Below are positions 3,571 to 16,031 of a DNA stretch of 41,666 nucleotides, piece after piece. Below the pieces are notes generated by a model. The model ran no database searches, was not told the origin of the DNA, and saw only the letters and a list, made by a program, of their open reading frames with translations. This DNA is from a virus (taxonomy: Duplodnaviria > Heunggongvirae > Uroviricota > Caudoviricetes): the IMG/VR virus record IMGVR_UViG_2526164631_000048, positions 1 through 41,666 of that record, one strand, 5' to 3'. The translations under genes and the position numbers were made by a program. Each line of letters starts with the position of its first letter. Position 1 is the first letter of the stretch.

Positions 3571-4200
3571 TTACTCACCTTCTTTGATGCGAATGCCAGC
3601 GGCGCGTGGCACATTAACTTCCACGATGCGCACAGTTGGTTTGTACATCTCAATCGCTGTCAGCCAGTCAGCGCCGGTCATATGCTTTTCTGCATCGCCA
3701 TTAGTCCATTGAACCGGCACACCAATAGCTTTCATCGCAATTTCTATTTCCCCGGCAATGGCGCTTTTCCCGCAACCAGTAAAACCAGAGACAACGACAA
3801 GAACTTCGCCTTTGGCTGGTTTTATTTCCCGTGCTTCCAGTTCTGCTATGCGCTTCTCTGCGGCTTCCAGCTTGGCTTCTGCATCTTTGGCTCGCATCTG
3901 CCAGTTGATAGCGATGTCGATAACGCTGTTAGCACAACTGGACTCGTTCTCTTCGGCAGCTTTAGCTTCAGAAAGCTCATCAAGCAATCCAAGAACAACA
4001 GTTGGCGTGGCGAGCGTGATAAAACGCATATTGCTCATATGCTCTTCATCGCTGACCTCATCTCCAGCCTCGACCGCTGCCATGTGCTGAACATAGCCGC
4101 TATCACAGGTATTCCAGATTGCCCCTGCCTCGTAACCCCATTCACCATGTAGTGCTTTTTCTGCCGCCTCACGCAGTGCCTGGTAATTAATTTCGCTCAC
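3571..4200 (-). CDS. Ead/Ea22-like protein
   Basis: 209 aa; coiled-coil AEAKLEAAEKRIAELEA; typical position in lambdoid early-left region. Confidence 0.55.
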   Translation of the reverse strand: MSEINYQALREAAEKALHGEWGYEAGAIWNTCDSGYVQHMAAVEAGDEVSDEEHMSNMRFITLATPTVVLGLLDELSEAKAAEENESSCANSVIDIAINWQMRAKDAEAKLEAAEKRIAELEAREIKPAKGEVLVVVSGFTGCGKSAIAGEIEIAMKAIGVPVQWTNGDAEKHMTGADWLTAIEMYKPTVRIVEVNVPRAAGIRIKEGE

Positions 4201-6532: not shown

Positions 6533-7357
6533 TCAGGCGGTGAAAGTACCAATAAAGGTTTCTACTTTGCTGTCTTTGAATTTCTCAACAAGCAGATCAC
6601 GAAATTCGTTAGCCATTTCTTCCTGCACTGCTTCCAGCTGAATAATGCGCAGAACCAGTACAGGACGATCGCCAGTGATAATGCTGAGGCGTAATTTAAA
6701 CGGACGTTCTTTCAGACCTTCAAACGGAACGCATTTAAATTCAAATGCCACTGGCATAATATCTTTGGTCTTCGCTTCGACAGACTCCATCAGGGAGCGT
6801 TTTCCGCTGAAGTCATTATCTTCAAAATCAGCGGTCTGGTTTGCTTCAATCGTGATTTTACGGACAGCCGCAGCCGCTTTTGTTGCCTGAATAGCGTCAC
6901 CATTAGCATCAAAGCCCACAAGGTAGTCGGCCCAGTCTTCAATCCATTCTGCCAGTGACTTCTGGGAGTTACGCTCGCCATTAACAGACAACAGAGCAGA
7001 AAACGGTGCTGTCTTTTTTAGTTTGAGAGTGGCGGTGTTATCTGCGTGACCTGGTTCATCAATAGTACCCAGGTTAAGCACACTGACGGCGCGCATATTA
7101 TCGGCATCGATAAAGCAGCGGGTGCCTTCATCTGCAAGATCTTTAGAATAACGGGTAAAGTCATCGATGCTGGCAGTGGAAAGCGCACCACGGAAACGGA
7201 AGCGATTTAAATTAAATTTTTCCAGATCATGAATGCGGAAATTCTCAGGCAATGCCACAGCATCGGCACCAATCTTACTGATAATTTCATTAACACCCTG
7301 AGCAGAAATAAGGGCATGGATTTGATTAATTGCGGTTGCGTCTAAGTTCTGAGACAT
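6533..7357 (-). CDS. YfdQ-like (DUF2303) phage protein
   Basis: 274 aa; size and N-terminus resemble E. coli CPS-53 YfdQ as I recall it. Confidence 0.55.
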
Positions 7358-7422
7358 AATAAGTCCTCACTATATAAAGATATTCAGTGATGAGATAAAT
7401 AATCAGTTAATTAAGAACGATA

Positions 7423-7785
7423 TTAATGACCTGCTGCGCGGAGTTTTCCGTCAGGTTCACCGGCAAGAGTCAGTAATTGTCCCTGGTCTTCCTGCAGAAT
7501 AGTCAGGCGACCACCGCGATTGACATACATCGGCGTTTCGGTGGTGTCTTCTTCGGAAATTTTCCCGCGGTTAGTTGGGCGAACATATGAGAGTTTGTGT
7601 TTGATTTTCACACGGTTCTCATCAAACGGTTCGATTTCCAGATTGAGTGAGACCTTCCCTTTGGTTTTCGTGTTCATCACACCGGAAGCGACTTCACTGA
7701 GAACTGCGCCGATTTTGGTTTCAAATACGCCGCCGTCCAGCTCCCCGATAAATGCCTGCACATCAGTACTGCGTTCGCTAGCCAT
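7423..7785 (-). CDS. YfdP-like hypothetical phage protein (120 aa)
   Basis: ATG at 7785 with AGGAG RBS; ORF track extends to 7971 with no RBS-supported start. Confidence 0.5.
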   Translation of the reverse strand: MASERSTDVQAFIGELDGGVFETKIGAVLSEVASGVMNTKTKGKVSLNLEIEPFDENRVKIKHKLSYVRPTNRGKISEEDTTETPMYVNRGGRLTILQEDQGQLLTLAGEPDGKLRAAGH

Positions 7786-7833
7786 TTTGCTGCTCCTCAT
7801 CATATCGACCCTGCAAGGTCGGTTGGTTTCTCC

Positions 7834-7922
7834 ACAAAACAGAGAAGAACACCTGCGGTGGCAGCCGCCCGGATGGATTGGGTTATGAGCCCGTCGTCCG
7901 GTGATGCTCTTCTCTGTTTTGT
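7834..7922 (-). other. Long hairpin: 15-bp perfect stem (ACAAAACAGAGAAGA / TCTTCTCTGTTTTGT) around a ~59-nt structured loop
   Basis: Perfect inverted repeat seen directly; sits between a leftward terminator and the first early-left gene. Confidence 0.6.
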
Positions 7923-7968
7923 AAAAAGAGCGGTACCAGCCGGAAGCAAGTGTACAAACTGGTACCGC
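7923..7968 (-). terminator. Rho-independent terminator on minus strand (10-bp stem GCGGTACCAG, then U-run)
   Basis: Stem 7930..7939 / 7959..7968; plus-strand AAAAAGA at 7923..7929 gives the minus-strand U-tract. Confidence 0.5.
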
Positions 7969-8379
7969 CAAAGCAGTGGCTGTTGTGGTGACCGGTGCTG
8001 ATCTCCGGCTTGCGGTTATTTCAGACTCTCACGGGCGTTTAATTGCCCCGCCGAACAGCTCTTTTCCGCATTAGCTGCAATGTCTTTCGCGCATCAGCCT
8101 GCGCATTCACCACAACGCTGAGAGCACTTAGCCAGTTACGGCACCACACTTTGTCGCGGTTCCATAAATGCCCTCATCGTTGCACCCTGGTCTCTTCCCA
8201 GGTGTCAAACCGAACCGCCACGCTGGTTAGGCGTCTTATCAGCATCATCATTGACTTGCACATTCCGGCTACCTGGTTTGTTTGCCCGAGCAAGGAGTGG
8301 ATTGTCCCCTTTAACGTCCCCAGACCGCTAACGACGCATGTGCCATACGCCGTGTTACAACCAAATTTTGTTTAATCTT

Positions 8380-8437
8380 GCCTGTGACATGTTTCTTTTA
8401 GATACATTATGTATCTCAAGGGTACATTGTCAAGTAT
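8380..8437 (-). promoter_or_regulatory. Candidate OL/pL region
   Basis: Palindrome GATACAttaTGTATC (8401..8415) and GGGTACA motif shared with the OR region; position left of cI terminator. Confidence 0.3.
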
Positions 8438-8460
8438 AAAAAAACCTGCCGAAGCAGGTT
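8438..8460 (-). terminator. Rho-independent terminator downstream of cI
   Basis: On minus strand: aacctgc-ttcg-gcaggtt followed by U7. Confidence 0.6.
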
Positions 8461-8471
8461 ATAAATATTGA

Positions 8472-9146
8472 TTAGGCCTTTATTTTGTATCTTCTTGGTT
8501 TTCCTGAGAAAATTACTGTACCAATTATAGAGCAATTACCGTTGATCTTAATGTAAGGTTCAGGCCAGTTTGGGTTTAATGCTTTGAGGTAACGCTGTGT
8601 TCCATCTTCTATCAACCGCTTAAAGGTGGTTTCGCCTGTATCGTGCATCAATGCAATAACGTCGTCACCGTGGCAGGCAGGGACTTCAGGATCTACAAAA
8701 ATCATGTCTCCCGGGCGGTACTCATCAATCATTGAATCACCAATCACCCGCAAGATATAAGTCATTTCGCCACAGGGTACAGGGCAGGGATAAGTTTCTG
8801 CTGTGCTCAAATCAACCTCAGAATAGCCAACTTCTTTCCATGCTCCGGCCTGTACCCATGATATGACAGGGACTAACGTTATTTGTTTGTTAGTAATTGA
8901 AACATCAGGTTTTTTTGTGATGTTTGTTGTCTGGTGTTCTTGATCAAGCCATCCGACAGGCAGGTCGAAACATTTTTCGATGTGCCGTGCCATGCTGTCA
9001 CCGATATTTTTAGTAGCACCATCTCCCATAAACCTGCTGGTCTGGGTTGGCTCGCGATCAATCATGGTGGCAAAGGAAGAATTCCCGCCAACACCATCTC
9101 TCAGTTTTCTGGCGTTAGACCGCCGGATGTCATGGACTGTTTTCAT
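8472..9146 (-). CDS. CI-like prophage repressor (HTH + LexA/S24 peptidase domain)
   Basis: 224 aa; C-terminal GDSM and K..D motifs of S24 self-cleaving repressors; divergent from cro-like gene. Confidence 0.8.
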   Translation of the reverse strand: MKTVHDIRRSNARKLRDGVGGNSSFATMIDREPTQTSRFMGDGATKNIGDSMARHIEKCFDLPVGWLDQEHQTTNITKKPDVSITNKQITLVPVISWVQAGAWKEVGYSEVDLSTAETYPCPVPCGEMTYILRVIGDSMIDEYRPGDMIFVDPEVPACHGDDVIALMHDTGETTFKRLIEDGTQRYLKALNPNWPEPYIKINGNCSIIGTVIFSGKPRRYKIKA

Positions 9147-9236
9147 AACGAAATTAAAACCTTTGTACCGATAGGGTACAAGTATCTTGAAGGTTCATCT
9201 CAATCATGTAATATGTATATCGGAGGTACATATTGT
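9147..9236. promoter_or_regulatory. Immunity-region operator/promoter (OR; pR and pRM candidates)
   Basis: Perfect palindrome TTGTACC-N5-GGTACAA at 9162..9180; candidate pR -35 TTGAAG / -10 TAATAT; GGAGG RBS before cro. Confidence 0.5.
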
Positions 9237-9437
9237 ATGAAAGCGTATTGGGACTCTTTAACCAAAGAACAGCAGGGCGAGTTGGCCGGAAAAGTTGGCT
9301 CAACACCAGGCTACTTACGGCTGGTTTTCAATGGTTATAAAAAAGCCAGTTTTGTGCTGGCTAAAAAACTTGAGCAATGCACGTCAGGTGCAATTACGAA
9401 ATATGACTTAAGACCGGATATCTATCCGAAAGATTAA
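9237..9437 (+). CDS. Cro-like HTH regulator (YdaS family)
   Basis: 66 aa; GGAGG RBS; ends ...LRPDIYPKD as in YdaS-type Cro proteins. Confidence 0.65.
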   Translation: MKAYWDSLTKEQQGELAGKVGSTPGYLRLVFNGYKKASFVLAKKLEQCTSGAITKYDLRPDIYPKD

Positions 9438-9468
9438 CAGAACACCTTCAATTTTTAACCACAGAACG

Positions 9469-10032
9469 ATGAGGCTAACCGTGGGTAAGCATCACTGGAA
9501 AGTAGAAAAACAGCCTGAGTGGTACGTGAAAGCTGTCAGAAAAACTATCGCGGCGTTGCCGGGGGGTTACGCTGAAGCTGCTGAGTGGCTGGATGTAACA
9601 GAGAACGCTTTATTCAACCGCCTTCGTGCAGATGGCGATCAGATTTTCCCGCTGGGATGGGCAATGATTTTACAGCGCGCGGCTGGCACTCACTACATTG
9701 CGGATGCTGTCGCACAGTCTGCTGGTGGGGTGTTTGTATCGCTTCCTGAAATTGAGGAAGTAGAGAACGCCGATATAAACCAGCGCCTGCTGGAAGTCAT
9801 CGAACAGATCGGGAGTTACTCAAAGCAGATTCGTTCGGCAATCGAAGATGGGGTAGCGGAGCCACACGAGCAGACAGCAATTAATGATGAGTTGTATCTG
9901 TCAATTTCGAAGCTCCAGGAGCATGCAGCACTGGTCTACAAAATCTTTTGCGCTCCAGAAAAGAGTGACGCCCGCGAGTGTGCAGCTCCGGGCGTCGTGG
10001 CGTTTTGTGTCTGTGGAGAAACTAACGCATGA
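9469..10032 (+). CDS. Hypothetical regulator at the CII position (possibly YdaT-like)
   Basis: 187 aa ORF directly after cro-like gene; family assignment uncertain. Confidence 0.4.
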   Translation: MRLTVGKHHWKVEKQPEWYVKAVRKTIAALPGGYAEAAEWLDVTENALFNRLRADGDQIFPLGWAMILQRAAGTHYIADAVAQSAGGVFVSLPEIEEVENADINQRLLEVIEQIGSYSKQIRSAIEDGVAEPHEQTAINDELYLSISKLQEHAALVYKIFCAPEKSDARECAAPGVVAFCVCGETNA

Positions 10033-10177
10033 ACAGTTTAACGGCAAATAACCGTTTGTCGCAACAGCTGGTGGTCAGCGTCGCTGAACACCTGTTGTTA
10101 CGGCATGAATGCAGATTACCAAATCACCTGGCTGTAAGTAACCACAGAGAACTTTACCTGACTGTGGGGGGCGAGTT

Positions 10178-10357
10178 GTGCAGGAACTTAACCGCTGGTT
10201 TCGTGACGGAAGAGGACTTTATGTTCATGTTATTCGTTGGGAGCCAGAAACACAGCGCGTTATCTATCTTCGCAAAGACTACCCGCATGAGTGCTTTAGT
10301 CCTTTGTGGAAATTCAGGCGTGATTTTGTTGAGTGTGAAGGACCACCAGCACATTGA
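10178..10357 (+). CDS. DUF4222-family small protein
   Basis: GTG start after G-rich RBS; WFRDGRGLYVHVIRWEPETQRVIY...ECFSPL pattern; sits in a different frame from the long ORF 10029..10865. Confidence 0.45.
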   Translation: MQELNRWFRDGRGLYVHVIRWEPETQRVIYLRKDYPHECFSPLWKFRRDFVECEGPPAH

Positions 10358-10631
10358 TTCTGCCATTCCGGGACGTTACACTGTTCAGGCACCTTATAAA
10401 GCGGGTGCCGGGATTGGCGTCCTGGAATTGATCAAGGCGATATATGACGCGCCAGCGTCTTTTTTATCGTCCGCATTTGCTCACATCAAAGTTATGGTGG
10501 GCTGGGCGGGGGCATCGAAAGATGCGCCGGTTTCCTTGATCACCGGTTACGCCAACCCCGTTCAGTTCACCACCAGCGAAATTGGCGTTTCCGGTGGTGG
10601 AAGTATTTCACCGATCAAGGAGGCTGCCATC

Positions 10632-10865
10632 ATGGCTACTGTCCCAGCCCTCACTCGTCTGAATGATGAAGACTTACATAAACTCAGTTATGTAACAACT
10701 GCACTACGTGCTCTGCGCAAGGTAACTCTTTCGGATCCCCAGGCGCATCAGGTTTTGGTAGAAACCCTTCTTAACTTGCAGGCTGAACGTATTCGTCTGG
10801 CGGATAAGGCTAATTTTCATATTCACCGTCTCCTGAATATCAGCGGAGGGCATCGTCATGCTTAA
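10632..10865 (+). CDS. Small hypothetical protein (77 aa)
   Basis: Strong AAGGAGG RBS 8 nt before ATG; stop overlaps next start (ATGCTTAA). Confidence 0.4.
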   Translation: MATVPALTRLNDEDLHKLSYVTTALRALRKVTLSDPQAHQVLVETLLNLQAERIRLADKANFHIHRLLNISGGHRHA

Positions 10866-11094
10866 TCCGTTGAGCCTCAATATTCGCCGTTTACTTCAGC
10901 GTAAAAAAACATCAATTCCTACAGTTGGGCAGTGGTACACCACGCCTGCAGGGCATGTTCTACGTGTTAGCCTGGTTGACCGTGAATGCCAGAAGGTGAT
11001 TTGTGAACCGCTGGGCCGTAATTACCGCGTCAGTATGCCGCTTATAGCCTTTCGCTCCGGAAAAAACATGAAGCATCTCGGAGGTGCAGCATGA
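10858..11094 (+). CDS. DUF4222-like small protein (paralog)
   Basis: WY..P.GHVLRVSLVDRECQKVICEPLGRNYRVSMPL pattern similar to 10178..10357. Confidence 0.45.
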   Translation: MLNPLSLNIRRLLQRKKTSIPTVGQWYTTPAGHVLRVSLVDRECQKVICEPLGRNYRVSMPLIAFRSGKNMKHLGGAA

Positions 11095-11909
11095 GTATGG
11101 AGCTGATGGTTAAAGCGATGAAAATTCGAGTGGGTAATCCATTGCGAAAACTGGTTCTGATCAAGCTGGCTGATAATGCCAGCGATCAGGGTGAGTGCTG
11201 GCCCAGCTATCAGCATATCGCTGATCAGTGCGAGATTAGCAAACGTTCTGTGATGAATCATATTGCGGCCCTCTGTGAGTCCGGGCTGGTAAAAAAAGTC
11301 ACCCGGAAAGGTGAAAAAGGTAACTCAAGTAATATCTATCTCCTTCATCTGGATGGTGCAGGAGATTCACTAGGGGGTAGTGCAAATAATTCACTATCTG
11401 GTGCAGCAAATTCACCAGGTAGTGCAGGAGTTGCACCAGGGGGTAGTGCAGGAGATTCACCCAGAACCAGTCACTCTTTTGAACCAGTCAAAGAACCAGT
11501 CAATGAACCAATAGCTGTTGGTGCATCAGTTGATGAGTCCGTGCGAGTTCGTTCAAACCGACCGGAATACTCTCCGGAGTTTGAGCAGGCATGGCTGGCA
11601 TATCCCAAACGTGCTGGTGGCAATTCAAAATCTGCAGCCTTCAAAGCCTGGAAAGCCCGTTTGAACGAGGGGGTAAACCCCGAAACCATGCTGGAAGGTG
11701 TGAAACGCTACGCGGGCTGGGTATCTGCGATGGGTAACAGCGGCACACAATTTGTGAAACAGGCTGTCACGTTCTTTGGTCCGGATCGTCATTTCGAAGA
11801 ATCCTGGGAAGTTCCTGCGATATCTGCAGCCAGACGCGAGGACCCGTACTTCAAAGCCAGTTACGACAACGTGGACTACAGCCAGATCCCGGCAGGATTC
11901 AGGGGGTGA
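11091..11909 (+). CDS. Replication initiator (O-like; N-terminal winged-helix DNA-binding domain)
   Basis: N-terminal LVLIKLADNASDQGECWPSYQHIADQCEISKRSVMNHIAALCESGLV; internal Gly/Ser/Ala linker encoded by iteron-like repeats. Confidence 0.65.
   Translation: MSMELMVKAMKIRVGNPLRKLVLIKLADNASDQGECWPSYQHIADQCEISKRSVMNHIAALCESGLVKKVTRKGEKGNSSNIYLLHLDGAGDSLGGSANNSLSGAANSPGSAGVAPGGSAGDSPRTSHSFEPVKEPVNEPIAVGASVDESVRVRSNRPEYSPEFEQAWLAYPKRAGGNSKSAAFKAWKARLNEGVNPETMLEGVKRYAGWVSAMGNSGTQFVKQAVTFFGPDRHFEESWEVPAISAARREDPYFKASYDNVDYSQIPAGFRG
11355..11515 (+). repeat. Iteron-like tandem repeats inside the initiator gene (candidate ori)
   Basis: Five imperfect ~20-bp repeats (ggtagtgcaggagattcac-like), then 3 perfect GAACCAGTCA 10-mers plus one degenerate copy. 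Confidence 0.55.
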
Positions 11910-15278: not shown

Positions 15279-16031
15279 ATGAACCTTGAAGCCTTACCAA
15301 AATATTACTCCCCAAAATCTCCAAAACTGAGCGATGACGCACCGGCGACAGGCTCGGGTGGTTTAACGATTACGGATGTGATGGCTGCGCAGGGGATGGT
15401 GCAGTCGAAAGCACCGCTTGGATTTGCCTTATTCCTGGCAAAAGTTGGTGTTCAGGATCCTCAGTTTGCGATTGAAGGTCTGCTCAATTACGCGATGGCA
15501 CTGGATAATCCGACATTGAATAAATTGAGTGAAGAAACCCGGTTACAGCTCATCCCTTACCTTGTGAATTTTGCCTTTGCTGATTATTCCAGGTCTGCGG
15601 CAAGTAAGGCTCGCTGTGAGCATTGTGCTGGTACTGGATTTCATAATGTATTGCGCGAAGTGGTGAAACACTCCAGAAGCGGGGAATCTGTTATCAAGGA
15701 AGAGTGGGTGAAGGAACTATGTCAGCATTGTCATGGTAAGGGAGAAGTCAGCACAGCGTGCAGAGGGTGTAAGGGTAAAGGTATTGTCCTGGATGAAAAA
15801 AGAACCCGGCTTCATGGCACGCCTGTTTATAAGATTTGTGGGCGTTGCAATGGAAACCGGTTTAGCCGTTTGCCAACCACACTGGCGCGGCATCATGTCC
15901 AGAAGCTGGTACCAGACCTGACGGATTATCAGTGGTACAAAGGATATGCAGATGTCATTGATAAACTGGTGACAAAGTGCTGGCAGGAAGAAGCATATGC
16001 TGAGGCGCAATTAAGAAAAGTGACGAGATAA
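15279..16031 (+). CDS. Late-gene antitermination protein Q
   Basis: 250 aa; Cys-rich zinc-binding motifs (CEHCAGTG, CQHCHGKG, CRGCKGKG, CGRCNG); placed just before lysis genes. Confidence 0.7.
   Translation: MNLEALPKYYSPKSPKLSDDAPATGSGGLTITDVMAAQGMVQSKAPLGFALFLAKVGVQDPQFAIEGLLNYAMALDNPTLNKLSEETRLQLIPYLVNFAFADYSRSAASKARCEHCAGTGFHNVLREVVKHSRSGESVIKEEWVKELCQHCHGKGEVSTACRGCKGKGIVLDEKRTRLHGTPVYKICGRCNGNRFSRLPTTLARHHVQKLVPDLTDYQWYKGYADVIDKLVTKCWQEEAYAEAQLRKVTR

Follow-up and report, generated by a model that had tools for sequence, protein, structure and literature searches.

The closest described counterpart of the RNA considered here is sRNA-17, a 193-nt small RNA (sRNA) defined by 5′/3′ rapid amplification of cDNA ends (RACE) and Northern blotting in an mEp460-like prophage of Escherichia coli K1 RS218 (Front Microbiol 2020, PMC7719688). 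Its deletion changed 48 transcripts and modestly altered virulence phenotypes; yfdP was up 95-fold and yfdR was also up, with host changes of about 2-fold (PMC7719688). A second reference system is the put RNA of phage HK022, which is likewise a cis-encoded RNA that lies just downstream of promoter PL of a lambdoid phage lacking N; put RNA is a two-stem RNA of about 70 nt that acts on RNA polymerase and has two related copies, one behind PL and the other behind PR (PMC9378689). Here, we analyzed the region between cI and yfdP, positions 7786 to 8437, in a 41,666-nt stretch of viral DNA (IMG/VR record IMGVR_UViG_2526164631_000048), referred to in full as the window, which corresponds to an SfV/mEp460/cdtI/Ayreon-type lambdoid prophage of E. 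coli. The region is probably the transcribed, noncoding leader of the cI-controlled early-left operon yfdP-yfdQ-yfdR and is built of conserved structured RNAs, among them sRNA-17, which is one member of a very large, unannotated phage RNA family.

A family of tRNA-like phage RNAs that includes sRNA-17

The full-length primers of Table S2 in PMC7719688 (AAAAGAGCGGTACCAGCC... and CGTTGTGGTGAATGCGCAGG...) map exactly to the window, at 7925 and 8117, and the published 3′ RACE end falls in the U-run of an intrinsic terminator; the Northern and RACE evidence itself comes from RS218 only. An earlier reading of this DNA, made from the letters alone (the original prediction), had offered a regulatory small RNA ending at the terminator as one of its options. 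This option matches the published RNA, and because the core, 8117 to 7925 on the minus strand, is sRNA-17, it was already in the literature. What is new here is the family membership and the tRNA-like fold, sRNA-17 itself having been published; neither of these, nor the modular build of the element, had been recognized in the original prediction.

The tRNA-like core exhibits a 9-bp closing stem, helix P1 (GUUGUGGUG/CACCACAAC), followed by AAU and the P2 hairpin (GCGCA-GGCUGA-UGCGC), a 78-nt insert or payload, and the P4 hairpin (GCCGG-AGAUCAGCA-CCGGU), which abuts the 3′ strand of the closing stem. The P2 and P4 loops are mutually complementary (GCUGA/UCAGC), and the centroid fold of the window core recovers P1, P2, and P4. 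By exact-motif scans, we gathered approximately 195 distinct family members from phages and prophages of beta- and gammaproteobacteria, phage P1 among them. The 5′ family motif, GAAUGCGCAGGCUGAUGCGC, which forms P2, has an exact match at window positions 8108 to 8089, and the 3′ family motif, GCCGGAGAUCAGCACCGG(Y)C, which forms P4, is found at 8009 to 7990, within the 30- to 177-nt spacing of the family; the window also has the closing stem that defines members independently of sequence (P1 of at least 7 bp, abutting both motifs). The 5′ 21-mer GAATGCGCAGGCTGATGCGCG was found at no fewer than 120 viral loci in an exact scan of IMG/VR and at 40 genome loci of Pseudomonas, Burkholderia, Achromobacter, Aeromonas, Pantoea, Serratia, Chromobacterium, and others, and the same scan with the 3′ 19-mer gave at least 120 more viral loci. 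Depending on which motif served as the anchor, the partner motif was located at the right distance in 118 of 126 or 121 of 132 loci, and at least 6 contiguous closing pairs were present in 86 of 95 distinct sequences, with no stem filter applied. The inserts are hypervariable, ranging from 30 to 177 nt and falling into 154 unrelated clusters among 193 elements; they mostly form one or two hairpins, and in 106 of the 193 they are closed by a single outer helix about 2 nt after P2.

The fold is supported by covariation. In an alignment of 81 distinct scaffolds, in which the inserts were replaced by GAAA and which had been prefiltered for at least 6 closing pairs, 94.2% of cells were paired versus 81.3% in shuffles, 14 of 24 pairs showed changes on both sides, and the covariation score was 0.343 versus 0.100, with none of 500 shuffles scoring as high; controls with a slid partner strand reached 25 to 49% paired. 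Across the family, P1 is 7 to 13 bp long with a core of 7 bp and up to 5 pair types per position, and P2 and P4 show compensatory exchanges, P2 with GC, AU, and UA pairs. The copy in a P1-like plasmid carries a compensatory change from G-C to A-U in the closing stem. The complementarity between the loops (GCUGA/UCAGC) was observed in 98% of cells across the family but is invariant.

The family is also common in E. coli genomes. A 30-nt 5′ signature was present in 1,007 of 5,426 complete E. coli genomes (948 sites on chromosomes and 240 on plasmids), and among the RefSeq E. coli matches listed, none of 40 records had an annotated feature there. Rfam 15 gave no match in 7786 to 8437, either with the whole window at gathering thresholds or with the region at an E value of ≤10, so that the search of noncoding RNA (ncRNA) families put forward in the original prediction left the region without a match. 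When 30 family loci were searched, Rfam matched only nearby tRNAs, Proteo-phage-1, int-alpA, and STnc100. No description of the family was found in the literature by motif or by topic; subscription journals lay outside the coverage of this search, and an earlier description is possible.

Family members are frequently located where phages carry tRNA genes. A tRNA on the same strand was found within 300 nt of 28 of 195 elements, often 7 to 20 nt away. In O157 typing phage 9, a genuine tRNA-Arg sits exactly at the position of the sRNA-17 core, after the common flank ...aagtgctctcagcgtt, and is bracketed by the flanks (upstream, aagtgctctcagcgt; downstream, aatcacgcct.aggaccgtgat) that bracket tRNA-like elements elsewhere; the downstream flank of this tRNA-Arg (aatcacgcctaaggaccgtgat) follows tRNA-like elements in other phages. 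Moreover, pieces of the leader are approximately 95 to 98% identical to noncoding DNA of P1-like plasmids just downstream of tRNA-Thr and 79 to 90% identical to the DNA directly after tRNA-Ile in such plasmids. In P1 and P1-like plasmids, members lie inside the C1-controlled tRNA/ban operon, and plasmid p50EVA-2 has two of them. The member in canonical P1 (AF234172; locus L277) spans 3777 to 3878 on the minus strand of the locus, has a 47-nt insert, and is positioned between tRNA-Thr and tciA, in a region that was nonessential in a CRISPR interference (CRISPRi) screen. Since it runs antisense across the point where the annotated upl and plp open reading frames (ORFs) meet, these two ORFs may not be genes.

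Other members occupy further settings. In 42 of 224 loci, as in the window, the gene immediately upstream and in the same orientation encodes a cI-like S24 repressor (35 distinct sequences), and other members are near NinG, endolysin, or spanin genes, that is, at the Q-lysis moron site. Clustering of neighboring genes yielded no candidate for an RNA-binding partner protein, only these context genes (cI-like repressor, NinG-like, spanins, endolysin). In phage vB_EcoS_swi2 (locus L009, 1258 to 1632), a tmRNA call by ARAGORN spans a tRNA-like element together with tRNA-Met and looks like a false positive due to the element. STnc100-like RNAs share noncoding islands with tRNA-like elements in p50EVA-2 (L004, 2325 to 2444; 38 bits, below threshold) and in Klebsiella phage Madison (L008, 3 to 208; 48 bits, above threshold), and P1 annotates a dicF-like region in the same operon as its family member, suggesting that phage early and tRNA operons gather several types of ncRNA.

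Organization of the leader between cI and yfdP

Leftward of cI, the order is the cI terminator, the 652-nt gene-free region, yfdP, yfdQ (DUF2303), and yfdR (an HD-domain protein), and the features of the region and its neighbors are collected in Table 1. The only antiterminator encoded in the window is of the Q type, and an N-like gene is absent. The region shares 99% identity with mEp460 and PhiR63_1; of 5,426 complete E. coli genomes, 2,666 contain parts of it and 799 contain 80% of it or more.

Table 1. Features of the 7786-8437 region and neighboring genes (window coordinates)
Feature	Position	Strand	Description or basis
yfdP	7423..7785	minus	No Pfam match; product matches phrog_204 (PHROG, function unknown)
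yfdP start	RBS GAGGAG 7797..7792; ATG 7785..7783	minus	ORF list and sequence (RBS, ribosome-binding site)
Conserved single-stranded GGAGAAACCAAC and small hairpin E	7833..7822; 7821..7806	minus	
Hairpin D	7834..7922	minus	Three-way junction; ~19-bp stem, arm D1 (CCGGA..UCCGG holding GGG-CUCAUAA-CCC), variable arm D2
Intrinsic terminator	Stem 7969..7930; U-run UCUUUUU 7929..7923	minus	-21.2 kcal/mol, z = -4.65
tRNA-like core	7982..8116	minus	P1 8116..8108/7990..7982; P2 8104..8089; payload 8087..8010; P4 8009..7991
sRNA-17	8117..7925	minus	Full-length primers of Table S2, PMC7719688
Unit C	8113..8182	minus	Long stem CAACGAUGAGGGCA/UGCUCUCAGCGUUG, variable interior; read from sequence
Units A+B	8186..8352	minus	Hairpin 8352..8332; invariant AGCGGUC and GUAGCCGGAAUGUGCAAG; hairpin CCUGG-GAAGAGA-CCAGG 8202..8186
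OL	8389-8407; 8409-8427		Two adjacent operator-like inverted repeats, 17-19 bp
PL	8433..8406	minus	Sigma-70, TTGACA-16-CATAAT; promoter scan, 11/12 positions match
cI terminator	8460..8443		Left of cI
cI	8472..9146	minus	S24 repressor
cro	9238..9437	plus	
CII-like gene	9469..10032		
Q-type antiterminator	15279..16031		Lysis genes next

The PL promoter overlaps the operator-like repeats of OL, and a repeat search recovered the 17-bp operator motif TGTAYNNNNNNGGTACA again at 9164 to 9180 and 9214 to 9230, in the cI-cro interval. Judging from the promoter sequence, transcription would start near 8399. The terminator hairpin was matched in stability by none of 200 shuffles; it is missing from a simple terminator scan because its predicted loop (approximately 15 nt) is above the 8-nt limit of that scan. 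Three elements named in the original prediction were thus recovered: the candidate operator/promoter at 8380 to 8437, where the near-complete PL match and the operator repeats lie; the leftward GC-rich terminator with its U-run (7923 to 7968), with the folding z score given in Table 1 and the published sRNA-17 3′ end in the U-run; and a long hairpin with a perfect 15-bp stem (7834 to 7922) before the RBS of the first early gene.

Between PL and the tRNA-like core lie units A+B and C. Units A+B folded by RNAalifold with 9 diverged homologues gave 31 pairs, 5 of them compensatory, and the same unit recurs in P1, where trnI and ban flank it, and in O157 typing phage 9, where it lies upstream of tRNA-Arg. 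Unit C overlaps the closing stem of the tRNA-like core by 4 nt; its homologues keep the stem and differ in their interiors, some of which hold the T-arm-like GGTTCGANTCC. In three loci, the Rfam family Proteo-phage-1 (RF03044) was located 70 to 130 nt upstream of the tRNA-like element (L024, 10242 to 10319; L132, 2535 to 2615; L162, 63 to 141), two of these being Pseudomonas genome contigs. The Proteo-phage-1 loop GAUAGCCGGAUAGUGC resembles the invariant GUAGCCGGAAUGUGC of unit A near 8270, suggesting that unit A might be a diverged relative; this is only a lead, since the RF03044 model found no match in the window even at an E value of ≤10.

Downstream of the terminator, the stretch from 7924 to 7780 that includes hairpin D folds with −57.6 kcal/mol (z = −5.1). 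The arms of hairpin D are 25 nt long and 84% complementary, with a perfect run of 15 bp, and in 20 diverged homologues, 98.9% of cells were paired with 7 compensatory pairs, compared with ≤51% in slid controls, so that the folding and covariance check proposed in the original prediction came out in favor of a maintained structure. In essentially all homologues inspected, hairpin D comes after an intrinsic terminator with a run of 5 to 7 U residues and before UGGAGAAAC(U/C)AAC, which is followed by a small hairpin and then by the RBS of yfdP or a different gene. Hairpin E varies in stem sequence among homologues while the motif that precedes it is conserved.

Hairpin D has several further sequence relationships. 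Its stem and that of unit C (8182 to 8113) follow a common minus-strand pattern, ACAACAG.AAG.GCAU ... UGC.CUU...GUUGUG, as in a repeated long-stem "cassette" hairpin with variable cargo, and the GUUGUG end that they share doubles as the 5′ strand of the tRNA-like core's closing stem. The tail of the terminator, CGCUCUUUUUAC (7931 to 7921, minus strand), is able to base-pair with GAAGAGC in the 5′ strand of hairpin D. The 15-nt sequence UGUGGAGAAAC(C/U)AAC that follows hairpin D (7822 to 7836, minus strand) recurs at 10012 to 10026 on the plus strand, at the end of the CII-like gene and before an ATG at 10029, as an RBS-like motif common to both early operons. In arm D1, GGG-CUCAUAA-CCC (GGGCUCAUAACCC) is identical to the anticodon stem-loop of the initiator tRNA-fMet. 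This resemblance is only a lead, because loop variants (CUCAUUC, CCCAUAA, CUCCUAA, and CUCACAA) occur when the sampling is anchored outside the motif, and strict mimicry of the initiator tRNA anticodon was rejected.

Proposed function of the leader and its alternatives

Overall, the explanation that accounts best for these observations, and which we consider likely, is that of a cI-repressed early-left leader formed as a chain of structured RNAs, with a tRNA-shaped RNA and an attenuating terminator. As the operator repeats suggest, cI would bind OL and shut PL. Firing of PL would produce a leader of approximately 475 nt that carries A+B, C, and then the tRNA-shaped RNA, with its 9-bp closing stem, D-arm-like and T-arm-like hairpins, and the 78-nt insert at the place of the anticodon arm. 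Cleavage at the foot of the closing stem might then create the 5′ end of the 193-nt sRNA-17; because the promoter scan detected no promoter-like site upstream of 8117 and this end lies 1 nt from helix P1, 8117 appears to be a processing site. The terminator at 7969 to 7923 may stop many transcripts and release a stable RNA and would thus attenuate PL. Only read-through transcripts would carry the 5′ untranslated region (hairpin D, GGAGAAAC, and hairpin E) and express yfdP-yfdQ-yfdR.

With regard to the RNA itself, the pairing of a nearly constant scaffold with a hypervariable insert points to the scaffold as the active part. The 5′ end might be matured by RNase P, as in a tRNA, to leave a stable tRNA mimic directed toward a conserved host tRNA-handling factor, and the insert could be under weak or lineage-specific constraint. 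As a best guess, we take the tRNA-like RNA to be a stable mimic of tRNA that arises by processing, with its terminator serving in addition to attenuate PL. A bolder version, which we put forward tentatively and think rather unlikely, is that the scaffold (closing stem and kissing hairpins) mimics the top half of a tRNA and is placed by phages of many proteobacteria in tRNA slots and beside cI to engage the conserved host tRNA machinery, either as a decoy for defense toxins that attack tRNA acceptor ends or elbows or as an RNase P-matured carrier that would stabilize and deliver a hypervariable, lineage-specific RNA payload, with hairpin D showing an initiator-like stem-loop before the first early gene. 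If a decoy or carrier role were true, these elements would form a new functional class of phage "tRNA-slot" RNAs.

A number of observations weigh against the tRNA-like and PL-leader interpretation. The authors of PMC7719688 claim an ArcA-regulated promoter for sRNA-17 (8108 to 8367), and RACE as performed there cannot separate primary from processed 5′ ends. The deletion strain keeps a chloramphenicol resistance (CmR) cassette between 8092 and 7975, upstream of yfdP and, judged from the primer design, probably reading toward it; because of this cassette, the 95-fold rise of yfdP is confounded as evidence for attenuation. Since the family was gathered by exact-motif scans, the anchoring motif is conserved by construction in each scan, and because the loop-loop complementarity is invariant, that pairing is without covariation support. 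An encoded CCA follows the stem in some members only (L077 and L085) and not in the window. The A/C-rich (ACC) tail and the U at −1 largely represent extension of P1 to 8 to 9 bp and so do not speak independently for tRNA-like ends; for this reason, the reading of the tail as a discriminator plus CCA and of the U at −1 as an RNase P preference was dropped. ARAGORN found no tRNA in the window and none in the 193 family elements even with introns allowed, its calls at the 80% threshold being dubious only, and the Rfam tRNA model (RF00005) had no match in the region at an E value of ≤10. By these two standard detectors, the window element is not a tRNA.

Alternative functions were weighed against the tRNA-mimic and attenuator reading. 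As proposed in PMC7719688, the RNA might act in trans by base pairing, the variable insert providing the seed for host or phage mRNAs and the scaffold serving stability only, which we regard as possible but doubtful. The altered transcripts and modest virulence effects of the published deletion point in this direction, a constant scaffold with hypervariable inserts would lend itself to programmable targeting, and the inserts fold no better than shuffled sequences (mean z of −0.6), which is compatible with single-stranded seeds. However, that study shows no target pairing, the host changes are about 2-fold, and the two large effects (yfdP and yfdR) concern the genes immediately downstream of the retained resistance cassette. 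Moreover, the extreme conservation is in the scaffold loops rather than the insert, and the longest match of an insert to its own flanks had a mean of 10.0 nt, compared with 10.0 nt for unrelated loci, in a test of perfect matches and local flanks only; an antisense action on the own flanks was rejected, as payload complementarity equals that of the control. A different role, which we judge quite improbable, is processive antitermination of the put type, in which A+B would bind RNA polymerase and allow read-through of the sRNA-17 terminator into yfdPQR. Unit A+B begins approximately 45 nt after the inferred start, upstream of the terminator that the early genes must pass, and it has a conserved fold with invariant segments predicted to be largely unpaired; it also precedes ban in P1 and a tRNA, a terminator, and a downstream gene in typing phage 9, and the window encodes a Q-type antiterminator only and no N-like gene. 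Nevertheless, at approximately 170 nt it is far above the size of the two-stem put RNA of ~70 nt (PMC9378689), and of 168 tRNA-like elements examined, only 13 have its core motif upstream. The HK022 nun-putL-cI-cro region compared with the window by blastn-short gave chance matches only (E ≥ 1.2), and no leader-like repeat was detected in the PR operon (9200 to 11200) except the 15-nt RBS motif; with neither HK022 similarity nor a PR copy, and with the hairpin it had singled out lying downstream of the terminator, the put-like cis-acting antiterminator of the original prediction is not supported.

It would be very improbable, in our judgment, that the region is evolutionary debris, a decayed tRNA-gene cassette captured at PL in which only the terminator still matters. 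Flanks in common with a real tRNA-Arg cassette, fragments resembling tRNA parts (the T-arm-like GGTTCGANTCC in unit C homologues and GGGCUCAUAACCC, identical to the tRNA-fMet anticodon stem-loop, in hairpin D), and the nonessential location of the P1 copy by CRISPRi are consistent with such an origin, but the 21-nt and 19-nt motifs are identical across beta- and gammaproteobacterial phages, abundant compensatory changes keep four helices intact, and a family with this many distinct members, carried by 1,007 of 5,426 E. coli genomes, shows a retention of structure not expected of pseudogenes. Hardly credible is a small protein or a decayed N-like gene encoded in the region. Mechanical ORFs do exist, namely, minus-strand ORFs of 49, 39, 36, and 26 codons (TTG or GTG starts), an in-frame TTG start that would extend yfdP back to 7971, and a plus-strand ORF of 110 codons at 8043 to 8375, and some phage records annotate hypothetical ORFs on both strands. 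These annotations conflict with each other, however, and RefSeq/PGAP has no annotated feature in the region in E. coli genomes. Compared with an 81%-identical homologue, the substitutions number 15, 12, and 13 at the three codon positions, an even spread, and the indels of 4, 1, and 2 nt shift the frame; length differences among hairpin D homologues are not multiples of three, and a small upstream ORF after hairpin D is not conserved across homologues. None of the mechanical ORFs behaves as coding. The absence of a long minus-strand ORF noted in the original prediction therefore needs qualification, in that ORFs of up to 49 codons are present, while holding in that none has a coding signature; likewise, comparison disclosed no conserved small protein gene, the finding named there as one that would speak against an RNA element, and its decayed N-like gene is contradicted by the missing coding signature and by the strong conservation of sequence and structure with covariation.

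If the preferred reading of a cI-repressed leader with a processed tRNA-shaped RNA is correct, the RNA once described as a virulence sRNA of a particular strain belongs to a widespread family of phage RNAs, and the published sRNA-17 phenotypes merit reexamination for cis effects on the early-left operon. It would also provide a candidate answer to the long-standing puzzle of stable non-tRNA RNAs in phage tRNA clusters and immunity regions and correct the gene annotation of many phage records. The region would represent an N-less lambdoid early-left operon in which RNA products and RNA structure make up the first 600 nt, among them a strong terminator in the path of early transcription.

Comparison with known systems

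In lambda, an N-like ORF is the first gene of PL; in the region analyzed here, no conserved ORF was found, and yfdP is the first gene. By eye, no boxB-like 15-nt hairpin was recognized in the region. The sequence CGCUCUUUUUAC resembles the boxA consensus, CGCUCUUA, but is itself the terminator tail. For the YrlA/bacterial Y RNA family (RF02553), the window had no match, and a weak match in a P1-like locus overlaps true tRNAs. The rnaC and rnaD RNAs of T4 (species 1 and 2), which are encoded within a phage tRNA cluster, are stable RNAs other than tRNAs and have no known function; because their sequences have no family motifs, the likeness is an analogy of context only.

The C4 RNA of P1/P7 and the CI RNA of P4 (CL00128) are similar in that a small, stable RNA with a 5′/3′ closing stem is cut from the leader of a repressor-controlled operon. 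Both are matured by RNase P. They carry two antisense loops that act on targets in their own operon, whereas the inserts of the present family show no excess complementarity to their own flanks, and the C4/CI models of Rfam had no match in 7300 to 8700 at an E value of ≤10. The same search recovered a genuine C4 elsewhere in the window (10490 to 10577; 82 bits). There, matches to isrK (64 bits) and to C4 antisense RNA (82 bits) occupy 10389 to 10577 on the plus strand of the PR operon, inside a mechanical 278-codon ORF (10029 to 10865) that is listed as an "immunity region" coding sequence in phage Ayreon. The C4 loop UUUCCUUGAUCA is complementary to GAUCAAGGAGG at 10607 to 10617, the RBS of a short ORF (10632 to 10865). 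Since the C4 region looks like the c4/icd module of the P1 immI type, the 278-codon ORF is probably spurious.

sRNA-17 of RS218 is found at the same locus as the RNA of the window, with essentially identical sequence and the same terminator end. It was viewed in PMC7719688 as isolated, ArcA controlled, and trans acting, and neither the tRNA-like fold and the position in the PL leader nor a family outside the Enterobacteriaceae was described there.

Finally, a structural and genomic parallel is with phage tRNA genes (trnA, trnT, and trnI of P1 and the tRNA-Arg of O157 typing phage 9 and TL-2011b), which use the same genomic slots and flanks as the tRNA-like RNA. The element differs from a tRNA in that its hypervariable insert of 30 to 177 nt replaces the anticodon arm and in that its loops, GGCUGA and AGAUCAGCA, are noncanonical and Watson-Crick complementary. 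In common with tRNAs, it has a four-way junction whose closing stem has a core of 7 bp, with a D-arm-like hairpin that starts 3 nt past this stem and a T-arm-like one that adjoins the 3′ strand, and it often stands in tandem with tRNAs.

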